Assembly (NCBI GenBank): GCA_963605405.1
Contig: CAVCUP010000011.1
Span: forward strand, 11,270-75,269
Direction of reading: 5' to 3'
DNA length: 64,000 nt
DNA from: a bacterium
Lineage (GTDB): Bacteria; Actinomycetota; Coriobacteriia; Coriobacteriales; Atopobiaceae
Shown here piece after piece: positions 26,435 to 35,491 of this stretch. Below the pieces are notes generated by a model. The model was not told the origin of the DNA. It ran no database searches and saw only the letters and a list, made by a program, of their open reading frames with translations. The first letter of the stretch is position 1. Each line of letters begins with the position of its first letter. The translations under genes and the position numbers were made by a program.

Positions 26435-27292
26435 CTAATCGAGGTAGCGGGCAAGGAACTCGCGGGTGCGGGGAAGCTTGGGGTTGCTGAACATCTCCGC
26501 GGGGCTCGAGGCCTCGGCTATGACGCCCTTGTCCATAAAGACGACCTGGTCGGAGACGTTCTTTGCGAACTCCATCTCGTGCGTGACCACGACCATCGTC
26601 ATGCCCTCGGCCGCGAGGTCGCGCATGACGTTCAGGACCTCGCCGGAAATCTCCGGGTCGAGAGCGGAGGTCGGCTCGTCGAAGAGCATGAGGTCGGGCT
26701 GCATGCAGAGGGCGCGCGCGATGGCCACGCGCTGCTTCTGTCCGCCGGAGAGCGTCTGGGCGCTCGCCTGCGCGAAGTCGGCGAGGCCCACGGCGTCCAA
26801 GTGGCGCATCGCGACCTTCTCGGCCTCGGCCTTGGTCATCTTCTTAAGGGTAACGGGCGCCAAAGTGCAGTTGTCGAGCACGTTCATGTTGTTGAACAGG
26901 TTGAAGCCCTGGAACACCATGCCGATCTTTTCGCGCAGCTTGTTCACGTCGACGTGGTCGGCGGCGAGGTCGGCGCCGCGGAACCAGACATGGCCGGAAT
27001 CGGGGGTCTCCAGCAGGTTCAGGCAGCGCAGCATGGTCGACTTGCCGGAACCGGACGCGCCGATGATCGTCACGACCTGGCCGGGAAGAACCTCGAGGTC
27101 GATGCCGCGCAGGACCGCATGATCGCCGAAGGACTTGCGCAGGCCCTCGACGCGGATCACGGGCTCGGGGGCGTTGCCGGAAGCGGCGGTCGGCGCAATG
27201 CCCGCGCCCGCGGTCGGCGCGCTCTCCGCCGGCGGCTCGTACGGCTGGCCCGCCACGGCGGCGGCGATCTTCGCGTACTTCTCGTTAGCCAT
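26435..27292 (-). CDS. Polar amino acid ABC transporter ATP-binding protein (GlnQ-like)
   Basis: It has Walker [10 protein letters not shown], signature [15 protein letters not shown] and Walker [16 protein letters not shown] roughly 40-aa Ala/Pro-rich N-terminal extension is present. Confidence 0.93.
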
Positions 27293-27295
27293 GAC

Positions 27296-28483
27296 TTATG
27301 CCTCCGCTTTCTCGGCCTTGACCTTGCTGGGGCCGTTCGACGTGCTGCCCACGGGGCGGCTCTCCACGCTCATGTGCTTGGCAAAGCGCCCGAGCAGCCA
27401 TGAGGCGATGGCGGTCATGATGAGGTAGAACACGGCGGCCACGAGGTAGGCATTGAGCTGCTTGTAGTAAATACCGGCAACCGTCGAGGCGGCAAACGCG
27501 AGGTCGAACACGCCGATAACCGAGAGAACCGAAGAATCCTTGATGTTGATGACAAGCTCGTTGGAAAGACCGGGGATGGCATACTTGATGCCCTGCGGGA
27601 AGACGACCTTTACCATGGCCTGCCACTGAGAAAGGCCGAGCGAGCGCGCCGCCTCCATCTGCCCCTTGTCCACGGACTCGATGCCGCCGCGCAGCACCTC
27701 CATCATGTAGGCCGTGGAGTTGAGCGAGACGACCACGAGGCCCGCCACGAAGCGCGACCAGATGTTGTTGACCTCGGTGATGGAGAGCCCGAACCCGCTC
27801 ACCACAGCGAAGCCCAGGTAATAGATGATGACGCCCTGGACGAGCATCGGCGTGCCGCGGACCACGGTGGAGTAGACCTTGGCAAAGCCCACACCGACCT
27901 TCTTGAAGAAGCGCACGCAGTCGTTGTCGGAGCGGTCGATCTCCATGATGCGAACGGCCACGAGCAGCAGCGCGAGGAAAAACGCGATCACGGTGCCGAA
28001 GACGGCCAGCTCAATGGTGGTAATGATTCCGGAGAGATAGGTCTGCTTGCCCTGCTGGAACATGTAGAGCACCTGGGTGAGCATGTCGTCCGGCATCTTC
28101 TGCGCGGCGGCCGCCGCGGCCCAGGCCGAGCAGAAGCCCATGACCGCACGGTCCACGAAGAGAACCGCCGTTATGACGCAGACAACGTACGAGCCGACGC
28201 GCAACGCGTTCGCCGCCGCCGGCTTGGCGAGGGGCGAGGTCTCCGCATAGTTCTTCCAGTGCGTGAGCTTGAACACGAGTCCCGCCGCCGAGACGACGAG
28301 CCACGCGACGAGCAGGTAATACATGACGAGCTCCACCGCGAAGGCTCCGGCAAGGAAGCTCATCGTCGGGCGCGTCGAGCTGGAGAGCAGCATGCCTACG
28401 GAAGCTATCGCCGAGGTGCCGAGCAGCACGTAGCGGTGGTTCGTCCTGGCAAAGGTCGCCAGACGCTCAGGTGCAGATGCCAT
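27296..28483 (-). CDS. Amino acid ABC transporter permease (HisM/GlnP family) with an extra N-terminal TM region
   Basis: It carries the EAA-loop region EAARSLGLSQWQAMVKVVFPQ. The protein is 395 aa. Confidence 0.9.
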   Translation of the reverse strand: MASAPERLATFARTNHRYVLLGTSAIASVGMLLSSSTRPTMSFLAGAFAVELVMYYLLVAWLVVSAAGLVFKLTHWKNYAETSPLAKPAAANALRVGSYVVCVITAVLFVDRAVMGFCSAWAAAAAAQKMPDDMLTQVLYMFQQGKQTYLSGIITTIELAVFGTVIAFFLALLLVAVRIMEIDRSDNDCVRFFKKVGVGFAKVYSTVVRGTPMLVQGVIIYYLGFAVVSGFGLSITEVNNIWSRFVAGLVVVSLNSTAYMMEVLRGGIESVDKGQMEAARSLGLSQWQAMVKVVFPQGIKYAIPGLSNELVINIKDSSVLSVIGVFDLAFAASTVAGIYYKQLNAYLVAAVFYLIMTAIASWLLGRFAKHMSVESRPVGSTSNGPSKVKAEKAEA

Positions 28484-28509
28484 AAAAATCCTTTGTTCTT
28501 ATCCACGAA

Positions 28510-28535
28510 GGGGCAGGGATGCGTATCCCTGCCCC
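28510..28535 (-). other. Intercistronic perfect 11-bp hairpin between the binding-protein and permease genes
   Basis: GGGGCAGGGAT-gcgt-ATCCCTGCCCC with no U-tract. This is the expected position for an mRNA-stabilising structure that uncouples expression of the binding protein. Confidence 0.45.
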
Positions 28536-28559
28536 GCAAACAAGCGCTGAGTTGTGTGC

Positions 28560-29462
28560 TTAGGCCGGCTGACGGTCCATGCAGTCCTGCCAGATGGAGA
28601 GGCGGTCGGCCTCGGAGATGCCGGCGATTATCTCGTTGAGCTTGGCGAGGACCTCGTCCTGGCCCTTGGCGATGGCGGCGTTGTCCGGGTTGCCGGGGTC
28701 GGAGAAGCCGTCGCCGTCGGCGAGCTCGACCTTCTGGAGATCGGGATAGTTCTCGAGGAGGTTCGGCAGCGACATGGACGAGAAGGTGATGGCGTCGCAG
28801 GTGCCGTTCTCGATGCCGTCGACGACCAGCGGGACCGTGGCCACCGGGGTGAGGTGGTTGACGTTGGGGATCTCGTCGATGAGGTCGTCGTAGAAGGTGT
28901 CCTTCTGGCCGAGAACGGTGGCGCCGTCGAAGTCGGAGAGCTTGGTGGCGCCGGCGTACTTGGAGTCCTTCTTCACGACCATGACGACCTCGTCGTCGAT
29001 GTAGGAGTCGGTGAAGTCGGCGGACTGGGAGCGCTCGGGCGTCACGGACATGCCGGCGCAGATGATGTCGATGGTGCCGTTGTTGAGCGAGTCGACGAGG
29101 GCGCCGAACTCCATCTTAACGGCGACGGGCTCCATGCCGAGGCCCTCGGCGATCTTCTTCGCGATCTGGACGTCGTAGCCGTCGGCGTAGGCGCCGGAGA
29201 CGTTCTCGATGGGAATGGTGGTGTCGGAGGCCTTCTCCTCCTGCCAGTTGTAGGGGGCGTAGGCGGCCTCCATGCCGACGCGCAGGGTCTTGCCGTCGCC
29301 GAGCGTGCCGGAAGAGGCGCTGGCAGAGGAGTCGGAGCTCGAGGAGGAGCTGTCGGAGCTCTGGGAAGCAGGGCCGCAGCCGGTGAGGAACGTGGCGCCC
29401 GCGACGGTGAGCGTCGAGAGGCCGGAGAGCTTGAGGAAATTACGGCGAGAGAGATCGTGCAT
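28560..29462 (-). CDS. Amino acid ABC transporter substrate-binding lipoprotein
   Basis: The start MHDLSRRNFLKLSGLSTLTVAGATFLTGC has a Tat-like RRxFLK and a lipobox. A Ser-rich linker precedes a type 2 periplasmic binding fold. The ORF-track start at 29540 is rejected. Confidence 0.88.
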   Translation of the reverse strand: MHDLSRRNFLKLSGLSTLTVAGATFLTGCGPASQSSDSSSSSSDSSASASSGTLGDGKTLRVGMEAAYAPYNWQEEKASDTTIPIENVSGAYADGYDVQIAKKIAEGLGMEPVAVKMEFGALVDSLNNGTIDIICAGMSVTPERSQSADFTDSYIDDEVVMVVKKDSKYAGATKLSDFDGATVLGQKDTFYDDLIDEIPNVNHLTPVATVPLVVDGIENGTCDAITFSSMSLPNLLENYPDLQKVELADGDGFSDPGNPDNAAIAKGQDEVLAKLNEIIAGISEADRLSIWQDCMDRQPA

Positions 29463-29811
29463 GGCGGTTCCTTCCGGTTTGGTGTGTGACCCCTTCCGTG
29501 CCGCGCAACCGGAAGGGACCCATTCCCCTCCCCCTTGCAACCGAATGCGAGAAAGTTACGCGCACGTGGGCTACCTTACGCCAACGCGCGCGGGCATGCG
29601 CGCCCGACCCGCGCGGGAAACTGCGATTTAACCCGCCCGCCGCTCATGCAGGGGAAGCGGGCGGCGGCGCCAACGCGCCGCGAGGGGCCGCGCAGAGAAG
29701 GGCGCCGGGCCGGGCGTCGGGCCGGGCGCCGGGCCGTGACGCCGCGCGGGCCCCTTCTCGCCCCCCCTCTCGCCGGCCATGCACGTTCACAAAGCGTTAA
29801 CGCAATGAGGG

Positions 29812-29841
29812 TTGCGTCGGCTCACTCCACCGGAGTAAAGT
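29812..29841 (+). promoter_or_regulatory. Candidate promoter of the Trp-leader/ECF operon
   Basis: TTGCGT (29812..29817), an 18-nt spacer, then TAAAGT (29836..29841). The -35 element is the right arm of the inverted repeat ACGCAA-N6-TTGCGT (29800..29817). Confidence 0.3.
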
Positions 29842-29887
29842 GGGCGCCAACGCGCAGGCAACGAATCCAAAGGAGAGGAGCGCCAAG

Positions 29888-29950
29888 ATGTCCGAGCACA
29901 TGAACAACAACTGGTGGTGGCGCAACTCGATTACCTTCGGTCAGTCGTGA
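29888..29950 (+). CDS. Leader peptide with three consecutive Trp codons (MSEHMNNNWWWRNSITFGQS)
   Basis: Not in the ORF track because it is too short. AAGGAGAGGAG (29870..29880) sits 7 nt before the ATG. TGG TGG TGG is at 29912..29920. The TGA stop is at 29948..29950. Confidence 0.75.
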   Translation: MSEHMNNNWWWRNSITFGQS

Positions 29951-29985
29951 GTCTTGTCGCGCCTTATTTTTACGCGAACTTTGAA

Positions 29986-30016
29986 GGGCTCCCGGTTTGG
30001 CCGGGGGCCCTTTTTT
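29986..30016 (+). terminator. Attenuator terminator between the leader peptide and the first TrpP-like gene
   Basis: GGGCTCCCGG (29986..29995), loop TTTGG, CCGGGGGCCC (30001..30010), then TTTTTT (30011..30016). It ends 33 nt upstream of ATG 30049. Confidence 0.8.
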
Positions 30017-30048
30017 GTTCACCCAACACACTCTAAGGAGAGAAGAGC

Positions 30049-30624
30049 ATGTCCGACCAGAACACCAACCAGCAGCAGGCCCGCACCGTTACCTCCGTGG
30101 ACCGCGGCACCCTCGACCTCAAGGCCCTCACCCTCTACGCGATTCTCCTGGCCGCCGGATTCGTCCTCAACATGACCGTCTCCAAGTTCTTCAGCGGCAT
30201 CACGGGCGGCATACTCTCGCCCGAGTTCATCATCGCCGCCTTCTGCCTGGAGATCCTCATCCTCAGGCCCAAGGTCGGCCAGGCCGCCGTCATCGGGCTT
30301 CTCGCCGGCGTCGTGATCCAGATCACCGCCTCTGTCAAGGGCCCCGACCTCATCGCCGAGCCCGTCGCGGCCGTCGTGATGGCGCTCATCGTCAAGGCGC
30401 TGGGCAACAGCGGCGCGAAGTCCGCTCTCCCGCTCGTCGGCACCTTCGTCGTGACCTGCATCTCCGGCCTCATCTACGCCGTCATCTTCGCCTGCCTGGT
30501 CCAGCGCAACCCCGCCCTCATCGGCGTGATGGCGCCGGTCGTCGCCGCCACCGGCGTCTGCAACGCCGTCATCGTCGCCGCGCTCTACATCCCCGTGAAG
30601 AAGGCCTTGAAGCTCAACGACTAG
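30049..30624 (+). CDS. ECF transporter S component, TrpP (tryptophan transporter)-like, copy 1
   Basis: 191 aa with about 6 TM segments. The core ...GGILSPEFIIAAFCLEILILRPKVGQAAVIGLLAGVVIQITAS... aligns by eye with my recollection of B. subtilis TrpP (..GGMKPDMMLIMMFMGILLFPRVQNVLVIGIVTGIISALTT..). AAGGAG RBS. Confidence 0.65.
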   Translation: MSDQNTNQQQARTVTSVDRGTLDLKALTLYAILLAAGFVLNMTVSKFFSGITGGILSPEFIIAAFCLEILILRPKVGQAAVIGLLAGVVIQITASVKGPDLIAEPVAAVVMALIVKALGNSGAKSALPLVGTFVVTCISGLIYAVIFACLVQRNPALIGVMAPVVAATGVCNAVIVAALYIPVKKALKLND

Positions 30625-30718
30625 CGGCTCGGGCGGCCTTCGCCCGCATCCCTCGCCAGCTCTTCCAGACCGTCGCCCCCGTCATTTTGCCCCCGCCCCG
30701 CACAGAAAGAAGCGCATC

Positions 30719-31267
30719 ATGTCCCAGCAGGCCCGCACCGTCACCGCCGATGCCAAGCAGTCCGGCGTCATCGACATCAAGTCCCTCGTCCTTCTCGCCA
30801 TCCTGCTCGCCGCCGGCTTCATCCTCAACATGACCATCGGCAACGCCGTCGCCATGATCGGCATCAAGCCGCAGTTCATCATCGCCGCCTACGCGCTCGC
30901 CATCCTGCTCACCGACGCCGGCTTCCTCCAGGCCGTTCTGTACGCCGTCATCTCCGCCTGCGTCTGCCAGCTCACGACCTCTATCCCGGGCCTGAACTTC
31001 GCGACCGAGGTCTGCGGCGCGCTCGCCATGGCCGCCCTCATCAAGCTCCCCCTCGGCGTGGGCGGCAAGTCCGTGGTCCCGCTCGTGGCCACCTTCGTGA
31101 CGACCCTCGTGTCCGGCGCGCTCTTTGCCGTGGCGGGCACCCTCATCATGGGCGCCGCCATCGGGACCGTCGTCGTCAAGGTCCCGCTGGTGCTCGGCAC
31201 CGCGGTCTTCAACGCTCTGGTGGTCCAGGCGCTCTTCTTCCCCTTGCAGAAGGTCCTCGGCAAGTAG
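30719..31267 (+). CDS. ECF transporter S component, TrpP-like, copy 2 (paralogue)
   Basis: 182 aa with the same architecture and clear similarity to copy 1 (LLAAGFILNMT..., PQFIIAAYALAILL..., VPLVATFVTTLVSGALFAV). Confidence 0.6.
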   Translation: MSQQARTVTADAKQSGVIDIKSLVLLAILLAAGFILNMTIGNAVAMIGIKPQFIIAAYALAILLTDAGFLQAVLYAVISACVCQLTTSIPGLNFATEVCGALAMAALIKLPLGVGGKSVVPLVATFVTTLVSGALFAVAGTLIMGAAIGTVVVKVPLVLGTAVFNALVVQALFFPLQKVLGK

Positions 31268-31346: not shown

Positions 31347-33173
31347 GTGAGCAACTCAAGCACCTCGCAGCCGATCGTCGAGCTGAGGGACGTCTCGTTC
31401 GCCTACGGGCAGGACAGCGCCCGCGCGCTCGACCACGTGAGCCTCGCCATCAACGAAGGCGAGTTCGTGGGCGTCATCGGCCCCTCGGGCGCCGGCAAGT
31501 CGACGCTCGCCGCCGTGATGAGCGGCGCCATCCCCCACCACTACACCGGCCAGCTCTTCGGCGCCACCATGGTCGACGGACACGACACCTGTGAGGTCAC
31601 CCTCACGGACATCAGCCGCGTGGTCGGCAGCGTCCTGCAGGACATCGACTCCCAGATGGTCGCCTCCGTGGTCGAGGACGAGATGCTCTTCGGCCTCGAG
31701 AACTACGGCGTTCCGCATGACCAGATCGAGGGCCGGATCGAACGCGCGCTCGAGACGGTCGGCATCCCCCATCTGCGCGACCGCGAGATAGCCAAGCTTT
31801 CCGGCGGCCAGAAGCAGAAGGTCGCCATCGCCGCCATCCTCGCGCTCGCCCCGCGTGTGCTCGTGCTCGACGAGCCCACCGCCGCGCTCGACCCGGCGAG
31901 CTCCACGCTCGTCTTCGAGACCCTGCGCCAGGTCAACGAGGCGGCGGGAATCACGGTCGTCGTCATCGAGCAGAAGGTCGCGCTGCTGTGCAAGTACTGC
32001 GAGCGCGTCCTCGTGCTCTCCGAGGGCAAGCTCGCCTACGACGGCGAGCCGCACGAGGTCTTCGGCCACGCCCGAGAGCTGCGGGCCATCGGCGTCGACA
32101 GCCCCCGCGTGGCGAGAATCGCGAACAGCCTGCTTGAGCACGGCGTCGTCGAGAGCATCGAGCGGCCGTGCCTGAACGTGGCCGAGGCCAAGGGGCTCAT
32201 CGCCGCTCTCGTGCCCGCCGGCGGCGAGGGCGCGACGGACAGCGGCGAGCGGGCCGCCCAGGGCGCCTCTTCCCTTATCCCCGACGCTGTCAAGCCGACG
32301 CGCCCCTCTCGCCACAAACCGGCCGCGCGCCCCCATGCCGAGGGCGCGGACCCCGTGGTCGAAGTCGAGGACGTGAGCTTCGCCTACCCCAACCGCGGGG
32401 ACTCCGTGGCCGGCCTCAACATGCGCGTCTACCCCGGCGAGCTGGTAGGCATCATCGGCCAGAACGGCGCCGGCAAGACGACCTTCACCAAGCTGCTCAA
32501 CGGCCTCTTTAAGCCGAAGACTGGGTCGGTCCGCATCGCCGGGCTGGACACGCGCGAGGTCCCCACCAGCACGATCGCCGCCCATTGCGCGACGCTCTTC
32601 CAGAACCCGGACCGCCAGATCTGCAAGGACACCGTGCTCGAGGAGGTCGCCTTCGGCCTTACCCTCCACGGGACGCCGCAGGACGAGGCCGAGCGACGCG
32701 CCGCCAAGGTCATCAAGCGCTTCGACCTACCGGCGGGCGAGTCGCCCTTCTCGCTTTCTCGCGGCCAGCGCCAGATGGTCGCCCTGGCCAGCGTCGTGGT
32801 CCTCGACCCGCAGGTCGTGCTCCTCGACGAGCCGACGAGCGGCCTCGACTACCGCGAGTGCATGACCGTTATGGAGACGGTGCGCGAGATGGCCGAGCGC
32901 GGCTGCGCCGTGATCATGGTCTGCCACGACATGGAGGTCGTGAGCGACTTCGCCGAGCGCATCGTGGTCATGACCAAGGGCAAGATCGCCGCGCGCGACC
33001 AGGCGGACGCGGTGTTCGCCGACGACGAGCTGATGGCCGCCGCCTACGTGGAGCCTCCGCAGGTCATCGCCCTCGCGAAGGAGCTCGCCACGGACATCTC
33101 GCCCGAGTTCGCGGGCATCAGCCAGGTATCCGGCATCGTCGACCTCGTGGAGGAGATGGTCAATCGTGGGTAG
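31347..33173 (+). CDS. Fused ECF transporter ATPase (EcfA1-EcfA2, two ABC domains)
   Basis: It has two Walker A motifs (GPSGAGKST, GQNGAGKTT), two signatures (LSGGQKQKVAIA, LSRGQRQMVALA) and two Walker B motifs (VLVLDEPT, VVLLDEPT). GTG start. Confidence 0.9.
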   Translation: MSNSSTSQPIVELRDVSFAYGQDSARALDHVSLAINEGEFVGVIGPSGAGKSTLAAVMSGAIPHHYTGQLFGATMVDGHDTCEVTLTDISRVVGSVLQDIDSQMVASVVEDEMLFGLENYGVPHDQIEGRIERALETVGIPHLRDREIAKLSGGQKQKVAIAAILALAPRVLVLDEPTAALDPASSTLVFETLRQVNEAAGITVVVIEQKVALLCKYCERVLVLSEGKLAYDGEPHEVFGHARELRAIGVDSPRVARIANSLLEHGVVESIERPCLNVAEAKGLIAALVPAGGEGATDSGERAAQGASSLIPDAVKPTRPSRHKPAARPHAEGADPVVEVEDVSFAYPNRGDSVAGLNMRVYPGELVGIIGQNGAGKTTFTKLLNGLFKPKTGSVRIAGLDTREVPTSTIAAHCATLFQNPDRQICKDTVLEEVAFGLTLHGTPQDEAERRAAKVIKRFDLPAGESPFSLSRGQRQMVALASVVVLDPQVVLLDEPTSGLDYRECMTVMETVREMAERGCAVIMVCHDMEVVSDFAERIVVMTKGKIAARDQADAVFADDELMAAAYVEPPQVIALAKELATDISPEFAGISQVSGIVDLVEEMVNRG

Positions 33174-33912
33174 CGTCATCGACTATATCCCGGGCAACTC
33201 CCTGCTGCACAAGCTGAACCCCGTCACCAAGCTCGCGCTCGCCGCGGCCATCATCCTGGCCACCTTCCTCGGCGACACGTATCCCCTGCTCATCGCCCTG
33301 CTCGTGCTCACGTTCGCCCTCGGCTCCTACGCCAAGGCGAGCGCCGGCCTCGTCACGCTCGCCAAGCTCATGGTGCCGCTCTCGGTGATCATGCTCGTGC
33401 TGCAGACCGCGTTTATCCGCACGGGCGACGCGCTCTTTGCGTGGGTCACCGTTGACGGCGTGGTCACCGGCACGAAGGCCGCCCTGCGCCTGCTGGGCGT
33501 CGCGCTGCCGCTCATCCTGATGCTCACCGTGACCAAGCTGAACGACCTGGCCAACGCCGTGGTCGAGGTGCTCCACGTGCCGTACCGCTACGCCTTCACC
33601 TTCACGACCGCGCTGCGCTTCGTCCCCGTGTTCAGCCAGGAGATGAACGCCATCATGGAGGCCCAGACCGCCCGCGGCGTCGAGTACGACACCAAGAATC
33701 CCATCAAGAAGCTGCAGCTCATGCTGCCTTTGTGCGTGCCCCTGCTCGTGAGCTCCGTCGGCAAGACGGACGCGACGGCGCTCGCCGCCGAGCAGCGCGG
33801 CTTCTACCTGCGCACGCGCGAGAGCAGCTACAAGCGCTACCCCATGGGCGGCGGCGACTACGCCGTGCTCGCGTGCTGCGTCGCGCTGATCGTGCTCGGG
33901 GTGTTGTTCTAG
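33166..33912 (+). CDS. ecfT: ECF transporter transmembrane (T) component EcfT/CbiQ family
   Basis: 248 aa. The N-terminus is IDYIPGNSLLHKLNPVTKL, and the conserved ARG signature region is MEAQTARGVE. The gene overlaps the ecfA stop by 8 nt. Confidence 0.88.
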   Translation: MGSVIDYIPGNSLLHKLNPVTKLALAAAIILATFLGDTYPLLIALLVLTFALGSYAKASAGLVTLAKLMVPLSVIMLVLQTAFIRTGDALFAWVTVDGVVTGTKAALRLLGVALPLILMLTVTKLNDLANAVVEVLHVPYRYAFTFTTALRFVPVFSQEMNAIMEAQTARGVEYDTKNPIKKLQLMLPLCVPLLVSSVGKTDATALAAEQRGFYLRTRESSYKRYPMGGGDYAVLACCVALIVLGVLF

Positions 33913-34087: not shown

Positions 34088-35491
34088 CTACTGCTCGAGA
34101 CGGCTCACCGTGGAGGTCTGGCCGGTCTCCGGGTCGGTATAGGAGCTGGTGAAGCCGGTAACCTTGTTGTCGCCGTTGAAGTGGACCTTCATCACGTAGG
34201 TGAAGTTGGCCTGCTTGCTCCAGCCGGAGGTCGGGTTCTCGCGGTGACCCGCGACGTCGACGGAGACCGTGGCCACGCCGTCCTTGTAGTCGGTCACCTT
34301 GGCGGCGGTGCAGATATCCTCTCCGTCGTTGAGAGCGGCGCCCTTGCCGCGGGTGAGCTCAGCGTACAGGTGGCTGGAGGGGTCGACGTAGTTGCAGACG
34401 CGCTGAGTCCAGTCGTCGATGGGGCGAGCCTCGGAGTCGTCCTCGTTGTTCACCGTGCAGTTGGTCCACCAAGTCTTGCAGAAAGCCGCTGCGGCGTCCT
34501 TACGGGTCCTGGCGGTCGCCTCTTCAGTCTGGGAGGCCACGGCAACGGCGTTGGCGTCCGCGTTGTTCTCGGCGTTGTTGTTGGTGTTCGCGCTGTTGTC
34601 GGAGGCGGCGTTGTTGTTGGCGTTGTTGTTGGCGAACTTGGCCTTAGCCTCCTCATCGGCCTTTGCCTTTGCGTCGGCTTCCGCCTTCGCCTTGGCCTCT
34701 GCGTCGGCCTTTGCCTTCGCGGCTGCGTCCGCCTTCGCCTTGGCTTCCGCGTCGGCCTTCGCCTTCGCGGCTGCGTCCGCCTTCGCCTTGGCTTCCGCGT
34801 CCGCCTTGGCCTTGGCCTCTGCGTCGGCCTTCGCCTTGGCTTCCGCGTCGGCCTTCGCCTTTGCGTCGGCTTCCGCCTTCGCCTTGGCCTCTGCGTCGGC
34901 CTTCGCCTTCGCGGCTGCGTCCGCCTTGGCCTTGGCTTCCGCGTCCGCCTTGGCCTTAGCATCAGCAGCGGCCTTGGCGTCGGTCTTCTGCTGGGTGGAC
35001 TTCGACTCGGTGGTCTTGGTGGTTGCGTTGGCGGTGGCCTTCTCCTGCGTGGCCTTAACGGTCGTTGCCTTGGAATCGGCCGCGGCGTCGCCCTTGGCGT
35101 CCGCCTTGGCGTCGGTCTTGGAATCGGTCGTAGTGGCCTTGGAATCGGCCTTGCCCTGGACGGACTGGGCGCTTACCTGCTGGGCGGCCTGGTTCGTCTG
35201 GTCGCGAGTCAGGAGGCTAAATCCCGCGCCCGCACCGAGCCCGACGACGATGGCGGCAGCGACGGCCACGGCGACGAGCCTCTTCTTCTTGGAATCGCCG
35301 TGAGGGGACTTCTTGGCGTGGTAAGCGCCCGGCACGTAGCCTTCTGCGTCGTTGGGGTTCGTGTCGTTCACGCCCGCGGGCGCGCCCGGCAGAATCTCGG
35401 TCATCGGGGCGCCGGCGGCCTCGGCACCGCAGTTGGGGCAGAACTTGTCGTTCTCGGACATCTGGGACCCGCAGTAAGCACAGTAACGCAT
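34088..35491 (-). CDS. Zinc-ribbon / single-pass membrane protein with a long (K-A-[DE]-A)n repeat region and a C-terminal globular domain
   Basis: The N-terminus [24 protein letters not shown] is a CxxC...CxxC zinc ribbon. It is followed by the TM segment [20 protein letters not shown], an Ala/Lys/Asp/Glu repeat, an Asn-rich linker and an unassigned C-terminal domain. Confidence 0.75.
34633..34985 (-). repeat. In-frame degenerate tandem repeat (about 24-nt unit, [16 protein letters not shown]) inside the zinc-ribbon gene
   Basis: The DNA reads as iterated gccttcgccttggc(c/t)tc(c/t)gcgtc(c/g)gc units. The protein reads [40 protein letters not shown]... Confidence 0.9.

Follow-up and report, generated by a model that had tools for sequence, protein, structure and literature searches.

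A candidate tryptophan leader-peptide attenuator in front of a TrpP-like ECF transporter operon, conserved in two families of Coriobacteriales

The enterobacterial trpL leader is a short open reading frame (ORF) with adjacent Trp codons, preceded by a Shine-Dalgarno (SD) sequence and followed by an intrinsic terminator ahead of the first structural gene; the 5' strand of its antiterminator starts around the leader stop codon, and a ribosome at that stop blocks antitermination while a ribosome held at the Trp codons permits it. We describe an element that, judged by sequence and predicted structure, shares all of these properties at positions 29812 to 30048 of a 64,000-nucleotide stretch of an Atopobiaceae genome (order Coriobacteriales; contig CAVCUP010000011.1 of assembly GCA_963605405.1; this whole stretch is called the window, and coordinates are window positions). 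It has no sequence or structure homology to trpL, carries three Trp codons rather than two, and stands before an energy-coupling factor (ECF) uptake operon rather than a biosynthetic one. We consider it very likely that the element is a ribosome-mediated leader-peptide transcription attenuator, which would sense charged tRNA-Trp and gate an ECF-type tryptophan uptake operon.

Several described systems resemble this element in part. In Corynebacterium glutamicum, a member of the same phylum, the leader peptide encoded by trpL has three Trp codons in tandem, and it acts by ribosome-mediated attenuation; it regulates trpEGDCFBA, while the neighbouring trpP has its own leaderless transcript and lies outside trpL control (PMC11995493, citing Neshat et al. 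2014). Compared by description, the number of Trp codons is thus the same, but biosynthesis is controlled there and uptake here. TrpP-type transport is the regulated function in Bacillus subtilis, where TRAP together with free Trp blocks ribosome binding at trpP (yhaG), a control exerted at the level of translation (PMC10327191, citing Yakhnin et al. 2004). At this gene, at the T-box-controlled Trp genes of Firmicutes and in our proposal alike, uptake goes up when Trp is low; the sensors there are the TRAP protein or an RNA that binds uncharged tRNA, whereas here the sensor would be a ribosome translating Trp codons. Classical leader-peptide attenuators outside Proteobacteria are also found in Firmicutes, where comparative genomics identified His-rich leader peptides ahead of his, hisS and hisZ, including non-biosynthetic genes (PMC9413887, PMC2965389); they differ from the present element in amino acid, phylum and sequence. 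In curated surveys of RNA regulons, Trp, His, Leu and Thr leaders control biosynthetic operons (PMC3766115). In the full-text literature searched, no Trp leader peptide was described before TrpP/ECF genes or in Coriobacteriia.

The leader ORF occupies 29888..29950 on the + strand, as do all parts of the element and the operon behind it. It has 20 codons, from the ATG at 29888 to the TGA at 29948-29950, and encodes MSEHMNNNWWWRNSITFGQS; the SD region, GGAGAGGAG (29872..29880), contains GGAG/GAGGAG, and the AUG lies 7 nt downstream. Three consecutive Trp codons, TGG TGG TGG, stand at 29912..29920 and form the proposed sensor. An earlier note on this DNA had claimed the 20-codon ORF, its strong ribosome-binding site and the triple TGG, and each proved to be exactly where it had been placed. 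While TGGTGGTGG occurs in four copies on the + strand of the window, the leader copy is the sole one that lies in frame within a short SD-preceded ORF; this, together with the conservation of the ORF, its frame, the WWW run and the terminator in all orthologous loci examined, indicates that the WWW run is more than a chance occurrence. No further mini-ORF with WWW or WW and a terminator was found in the window or in any of the loci.

The ORF is followed by an intrinsic terminator at 29983..30016 (left arm 29983-29996, loop 29997-29999, right arm 30000-30013, U-run to 30016). The terminator scan gives the stem (29983-30013) 14 pairs, nine of them G-C, and a 3-nt loop; it begins 32 nt past the leader stop, and 32 nt separate the end of the T-run at 30016 from the ATG of the first structural gene at 30049. 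The GC hairpin with a U6 run that the earlier note had placed at 29986..30016 corresponds to this predicted terminator, with 14 pairs instead of the proposed 10 bp and a start 32 rather than 35 nt after the stop. The same structure is the RNAalifold consensus; across 18 Atopobiaceae-type leaders, 96% of its cells are paired and there is one compensatory pair. The distance from terminator to trpP differs between groups: most Atopobiaceae-type loci have 30-46 nt, Coriobacteriaceae have 80-146 nt, and longer spacers, up to 64-146 nt, also occur in L012/L013, L017/L019 and L034 (L numbers denote individual loci). In Coriobacteriaceae this spacer (e.g. about 3940-3960 in L015) carries a conserved ATCACGCGCCTC, replaced by CGCGTCATGCAC in the C. 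intestinalis/L039 type.

How widely the leader is kept was assessed in two sets of sequences. One genome per species was scanned with the S-component of the transporter, which returned 39 loci; in 34 of them the available upstream DNA extends over roughly 250 nt or more. In each of these 34, a co-oriented N-WWW-[R/H] mini-ORF stands ahead of a G+C-rich hairpin that ends in a U-run. Both Atopobiaceae and Coriobacteriaceae are represented, and the species include Olsenella uli, Collinsella aerofaciens, C. massiliensis and Enorma massiliensis; Collinsella intestinalis also has the leader, including WWW, and the most divergent leader-bearing genome locus belongs to a Coriobacteriaceae metagenome-assembled genome (MAG) whose transporter is 48% identical. 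An SD-preceded in-frame AUG is present in 34/34 distinct genome-derived leaders, and UGG UGG UGG is kept in 35/35. A DNA-pattern scan of metagenomes added 120 stretches, about 100 of which hold genuine leaders, the remainder having matched by chance within long ORFs; in almost all cases the genuine leaders have a TrpP-like gene, EcfAA' and EcfT behind them. The metagenome pattern fixed AAC-TGGTGGTGGC and CGGTC, and for these bases only the genome set (35/35) is unbiased. Pooling both sets gives 140 leaders and 62 distinct peptides. Apart from the chance matches in long ORFs and one deletion lineage considered below, no leader was found before any other kind of gene. Thus the alignment of related intergenic regions that the earlier note had suggested shows the WWW ORF and the hairpin conserved in every orthologous locus examined. 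The protein searches gave only Coriobacteriales among the 120 best matches listed, and did not reach TrpP homologues outside that order. Six Atopobiaceae-type contigs (L001, L004, L006, L017, L019 and L034) are deposited under foreign names such as Alloprevotella, Paludibacteraceae, Faecalibacterium prausnitzii, Prevotella and Acutalibacteraceae, which probably reflects mis-binning of MAGs.

The number of codons before WWW varies from 8 to 14 among the 62 peptides, as does their sequence, and yet WWW is in frame with an SD-preceded AUG every time. From WWW to the stop the distance is nine codons in 60 of the 62 (in one locus, L014, a premature stop falls one codon early; another, L010, has a fourth, near-Trp codon, reading WWWC). 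The codon at +6 after the run encodes I, V, F, L or A in the genome set, and the metagenome leaders add S to make six residues; its third base is C wherever nucleotides were read (GUC, AUC, UUC, CUC, GCC, UCC), and an invariant GGU C comes next. A residue that varies while its codon always ends in C, before an invariant GGU C, places the constraint at the level of the RNA and not of the peptide.

This bears directly on the possibility of a TnaC-like device. TnaC is a nascent peptide that senses free Trp, acts on Rho-dependent termination and induces at high Trp; like the present leader it is a short Trp-containing peptide, and its operon includes a Trp permease. By analogy, a nascent N-WWW-[R/H]...G-[R/Q]-x peptide could arrest the ribosome on free L-Trp, the position of the arrest deciding between terminator and antiterminator. 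Residues that lack an obvious RNA-helix explanation speak for such an arrest, namely the Asn (AAC, 29909-29911 in the window) immediately before WWW in 35/35 genome-derived leaders, for which no helix was found, the R or H directly after WWW in 60/62 distinct peptides and the Gly at +7 (GGU, 29939-29941) in 62/62. However, the invariant Gly codon is explained by antiterminator pairing, and codons +6 to +8 are kept at the nucleotide level in a way that matches the pairing CGGUC:GACCG. Moreover, three identical rare codons in a row are what codon-level sensing would be expected to use, and in TnaC only one Trp is critical. Sequence and length are free to vary in the N-terminal half of the present peptide. 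This leader also differs from TnaC in combining its Trp codon run with an intrinsic terminator and in the induction expected at low Trp. Induction of an importer by excess Trp would be sensible only for catabolism, and the operon contains no tryptophanase gene. We therefore regard a TnaC-like mechanism as very improbable and favour sensing of charged tRNA-Trp by a ribosome on the Trp codons.

A ribosome-mediated attenuator needs an antiterminator, and folding, duplex and alignment tests support one. Its 5' strand, 29934..29961, is a 28-nt segment that runs across the stop codon UGA (29948-50) and comprises CCUUCGGUCAG (29934-44), CG (29946-47), GAGUCUU (29949-55), GU (29956-57) and CGCG (29958-61). 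The 3' strand, 29978..30007, comprises AC (29978-79), AGGGCUC (29985-91), CG (29993-94) and UUGGCCGGGGG (29997-30007), and shares bases with all three parts of the terminator: left arm, loop and the greater portion of the right arm. Between the two strands, CGCG at 29958-61 pairs with CGCG at 29973-76 to form an apical hairpin (29958..29976), also part of the RNAalifold consensus, which forms in both states and caps the antiterminator; its stem is 98% paired, and its loop varies in sequence and length. The core of the helix was obtained by partition-function folding of the nascent RNA as far as the terminator loop, the first 13-19 nt past the Trp codons being masked as the stalled ribosome. 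In the window, AGUCG (29943-47) and GAGUCUU (29949-55) pair with AGGGCUC (29985-91) and CGGUU (29993-97). With the ribosome at WWW, pairing between the left terminator arm and this stop-spanning segment has p about 0.9 in 10/10 Atopobiaceae-type representatives, and likewise in L036/L037, of the Enorma and C. massiliensis type. The invariant CGGUC of the ORF lengthens the helix by pairing with the terminator loop and the upper part of the right arm (GACCG or GGCCG); in the window this pairs CCUUCGGUCAG with UUGGCCGGGGG. Owing to this extension, both terminator arms find a complement in the antiterminator strand, a difference from enterobacterial trpL.

Complementarity was measured against controls. 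Paired with the terminator region, the 26 nt across the stop form a duplex of -27.8 kcal/mol in the window against -13.7 +/- 2.9 for dinucleotide shuffles (z -4.87), and over 24 representatives sharing less than 90% identity the same test gives a mean z of -2.21, with p <= 0.05 in 16/24. With the left arm and loop alone as partner the signal is weak (mean z -0.92 over the 24 representatives), and the top of the right arm is needed for it to be clear; in this left-arm test the best 20-nt window begins 8-14 nt before the stop in 19/24. In the alignments, 95-96% of the antiterminator cells are paired; sliding the partner lowers the 96% to at most 51%. Constrained folds of the window with the ribosome on the third Trp codon give -30.7 kcal/mol for the antiterminator state and -33.7 for the terminator state, while with the ribosome on the stop codon only the terminator is obtained (-26.8 kcal/mol). 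The geometry thus fits: the antiterminator 5' strand is free with the ribosome at WWW and covered with the ribosome at the stop. Folding, which the earlier note had suggested, accordingly yields mutually exclusive terminator and antiterminator structures. Its tentative pairings fared unevenly: GAGUC (29949-53) against the left arm is part of the antiterminator supported here, CCUUC (29934-38) belongs to the antiterminator but pairs with the right arm at 30003-30007 and not with the left, and the proposed pairing of GGCGC (29919..29923) with GCGCC (29959..29963) is not supported.

A working model may be suggested from these results. It takes the parts, their conservation, their complementarity and their geometry as computed, and adds inferred ribosome footprints, with about 13 nt assumed to be covered downstream of the A site, and an inferred kinetic order of folding. 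A putative promoter lies at 29812..29841 (-35 TTGCGT at 29812-29817, an 18-nt spacer, -10 TAAAGT at 29836-29841); a stricter consensus scan did not call it, and both hexamers are kept across Atopobiaceae loci with a variable spacer between them. Transcription would start near 29848, and a ribosome would begin translation of the 20-codon leader. When Trp-tRNA is scarce, the ribosome would stall with a UGG codon (29912-29920) in the A site and its leading edge at about 29925-29933, leaving 29934-29961 free, that is, the last five codons, the stop and 11 nt beyond. This segment would capture the emerging 29978-30007 in a long interrupted antiterminator helix, the terminator would be blocked, and RNA polymerase would read into both trpP-like genes and ecfAA'T. 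When Trp-tRNA is plentiful, the ribosome would instead reach the UGA at 29948-50, its footprint over about 29936-29963 hiding the antiterminator 5' strand; formation of the 14-bp terminator would follow and end transcription at the U-run near 30016.

Unlike in enterobacterial trpL, no clear 1:2 pause or anti-antiterminator hairpin was identified here. In the window's full-length minimum-free-energy fold, which stands for the absence of translation, the SD region is the partner of the stop-spanning strand and the terminator is present; in some lineages GACCG or ACCGAC upstream of the SD can pair with CGGUC, but this is not uniformly conserved. Pairing of the SD region or of upstream sequence with the stop-spanning strand may possibly serve as an anti-antiterminator.

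The genes behind the terminator encode an ECF system: two TrpP-like S-components (30049..30624, 191 aa, PF17099 at 26.8 bits; 30719..31267, 182 aa, PF17099 at 25.0 bits and 41% identical to the first), a fused EcfA-EcfA' ATPase (31347..33173, 608 aa, matching TIGR04520 with 445 bits and TIGR04521 with 418 bits, both above cut-offs) and the EcfT transmembrane component (33166..33912, 248 aa, CbiQ PF02361 at 90.5 bits). S-component(s), EcfA, EcfA' and EcfT are encoded together in the window, and the operon is kept in L039, L040, L061 and L103. From its sequence this operon is a dedicated ECF importer with TrpP-like S-components, for which tryptophan is the inferred substrate. TrpP is the sole Pfam family matched, 9/12 homologues match it at E <= 0.01 and no other family, and many S-component homologues carry a precomputed PF17099 assignment; no NCBIfam model matches the S-component, and solved structures were uninformative. 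The number of S-components differs, with two paralogues in the window and in Atopobiaceae loci and one in L039 and C. intestinalis, and it is possible that the two paralogues differ in substrate or affinity.

Several observations weigh against the proposed attenuator or limit what can be claimed for it. (i), both S-components of the window fall just under the PF17099 gathering cut-off of 27.2 bits, so that of the tryptophan-type ECF operon put forward in the earlier note the ECF operon and the exclusive match to the TrpP family stand, with family scores that stay slightly sub-threshold. (ii), the conservation of AAC-TGGTGGTGGC and CGGTC in the metagenome set is circular, since these bases were built into the search pattern. 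(iii), in the C. aerofaciens group the antiterminator is weaker (z -1.7) and in a shifted register, the partner of the left arm being displaced some 10-20 nt upstream, still within the 3' end of the ORF. (iv), although L039 and L074 have the antiterminator state as their minimum-free-energy structure outright, the terminator state is more stable by 6-10 kcal/mol in most other sequences; the switch must then be kinetic, as in classical attenuators. (v), the antiterminator helix shows no double-sided covariation, and 12/17 of its pairs never vary in the Atopobiaceae alignment. The covariation looked for along the lines of the earlier note is thus present once in the terminator, as the compensatory pair, and absent from the antiterminator, whose sequence is too conserved to vary; support for the antiterminator comes from complementarity, position and energetics. 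(vi), when the whole region from the stalled ribosome to the left arm is shuffled, the left arm still finds an upstream partner with about the frequency seen in the real sequence. This shuffle is powerless because G+C-rich RNA pairs easily, and it was replaced by the segment-specific duplex tests given above. One candidate covariation, U29955:A against C:G in L002-L004 and L012, was rejected, the changed base being one column off and the helix there ending in a C.A mismatch.

The last two points are also those on which another explanation could draw, namely that the ORF is a functional micropeptide or a conserved non-regulatory upstream ORF and the hairpin the terminator of this small gene or a constitutive partial terminator, with no Trp switch. 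Such an explanation would accommodate the lack of covariation in the antiterminator, the non-significant whole-region shuffle and the existence of one lineage that retains leader and terminator without the transporter operon. In this Collinsella-like lineage (L049, L097, L111, L112 and L115) the leader ORF and the terminator are intact and the operon is lost, except for the last ~20 codons of ecfT about 480 nt downstream; the sister contigs L061 and L133 have the same leader and the full operon. With the end of ecfT still present, the lineage looks like a recent remnant. A micropeptide is moreover difficult to reconcile with a peptide that is kept only at WWW and at positions coinciding with RNA pairing while the rest varies, with the fixed distance from WWW to the stop and the fixed overlap of the stop with the antiterminator strand across families, and with an element that otherwise always stands co-oriented and directly 5' of the TrpP-like ECF operon (a second promoter was not searched for). 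We consider this explanation very improbable.

It could also be argued that the RNA is recognized in trans, through a T-box-like contact with tRNA, a TRAP-like protein or a small-molecule riboswitch, the ORF being incidental. Precedents exist, as T-boxes occur in Actinobacteria (PMC3766115) and the Bacillus TrpP genes are under TRAP (PMC10327191). However, no Rfam T-box was matched at E <= 10 within 29000-31000, and the one Rfam model to match the leader at that threshold was Trp_leader (RF00513), insignificantly so (15.7 bits, E = 8.3, gathering threshold 41). A TRAP array would have 9-11 (G/U)AG triplets spaced 2-3 nt apart, and reading of the sequence revealed scattered GAG only and no regular array. 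The roughly 100 nt from AUG to terminator are too short for a T-box, and the reading frame is kept across indels, which argues that the ORF is translated. Recognition in trans is, in our view, extremely improbable, and the leader-peptide attenuator remains the reading that we retain. The earlier note, which had advanced this interpretation, named an unconserved ORF or Trp run and the lack of a mutually exclusive fold among the outcomes that would speak against it; what we find instead is a conserved ORF with its Trp codons, a terminator, an exclusive antiterminator, fixed spacing and the ECF operon, kept across two families of Coriobacteriales.

The Trp codons may have a second role. The SD-AUG spacer GCGCCA (29880..29885) is complementary to the third Trp codon and the codon that follows (UGGCGC, 29918-29923), and the two can form a helix that we call P1, in which bases of the sensor double as the 3' strand. 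The P1 duplex of the window has an energy of -12.3 kcal/mol (z -2.15 against shuffled spacers), the mean z is -2.19 over the 24 representatives, and 86% of cells are paired in alignment A2 against at most 57% in slid controls. Spacer variants (GCCACCA, GCCAUCAUCA, GCCAUCACCA, GCCGCCGUUA and CCGCCA) each retain 6-10 pairs with UGGUGGUGGC(N). P1 would be open while a ribosome occupies the Trp codons, and would occlude the leader initiation region when these codons are unoccupied; P1 thus probably restricts leader translation to the first, transcription-coupled ribosome. In Yanofsky's work on E. coli, the leader ribosome-binding site reportedly pairs with a downstream segment, which ends repeated translation of the leader; we take this resemblance as a lead only.

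It is tempting to speculate further that these leaders form an independently evolved, Coriobacteriales-wide attenuator family with three unusual design features: (i), tRNA-Trp charging would gate an ECF importer and not a biosynthetic operon; (ii), the strand that forms the antiterminator would belong to the leader ORF, extend past its stop and be complementary to each arm of the terminator; and (iii), the sensor codons would pair with their own SD-AUG spacer, closing the ribosome-binding site when free of ribosomes to give a self-limiting, single-ribosome switch. Taken as a whole, this more ambitious proposal is possible but rather doubtful.

The surroundings of the element contain other features. 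Directly 5' of the putative -35, the motif GTTCACAAAGCGTTAAC (GTTCAC-N5-GTTAAC; 29785-29801, +) is unique in the window and kept in the Atopobiaceae-type loci L001-L005 and L007-L011; judging from its sequence, it could be a transcription-factor site or an UP-like element and so add another level of regulation. On the - strand, 29492-29565 matches the Corio-PBP RNA over its full length (Rfam RF02945, 92 bits), in the 5' untranslated region of a divergent gene for an SBP_bac_3 solute-binding protein, the first of an amino-acid-type ATP-binding cassette operon (26435-29540, -). Taken with the protein matches, this RNA puts the host in the Atopobiaceae of the order Coriobacteriales, near Paratractidigestivibacter or Olsenella. 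The interval between the divergent promoters (29695-29759) holds a G+C-rich 12-nt tandem repeat, GGGCGCCGGGCC, in 3.1 copies (29700-29736), which sits within an imperfect 31-nt inverted repeat with 71% complementarity. Downstream of the ECF operon, an ORF at 34088-35491 (-) encodes 467 aa, in which a zinc-ribbon-like N-terminus (CxxC...CxxC) gives way to a very long repeat rich in Ala, Lys and Asp.

The mechanism proposed is textbook, and the surprise to a specialist is for this reason moderate; what the analysis supports as new is a classical ribosome-mediated attenuator in a lineage from which it was unreported, apparently controlling uptake. The leader is absent from Rfam and no mention of it was found in the literature searched, and its 62 or more peptide variants make up a family that joins the few leader-peptide attenuators described outside Proteobacteria. 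One transporter family would thereby be served by three sensors in different phyla, TRAP, the T-box and a leader peptide, and the pairing of Trp codons with the SD-AUG spacer is a compact and testable design feature. For the organisms themselves, the leader provides regulatory evidence, independent of the weak Pfam match, that ties a dedicated ECF system of Collinsella, Olsenella and Enorma to tryptophan. These are abundant gut and oral Actinobacteria, and the finding suggests that their scavenging of tryptophan may be tuned to tRNA charging, which would bear on the competition for tryptophan in the gut.

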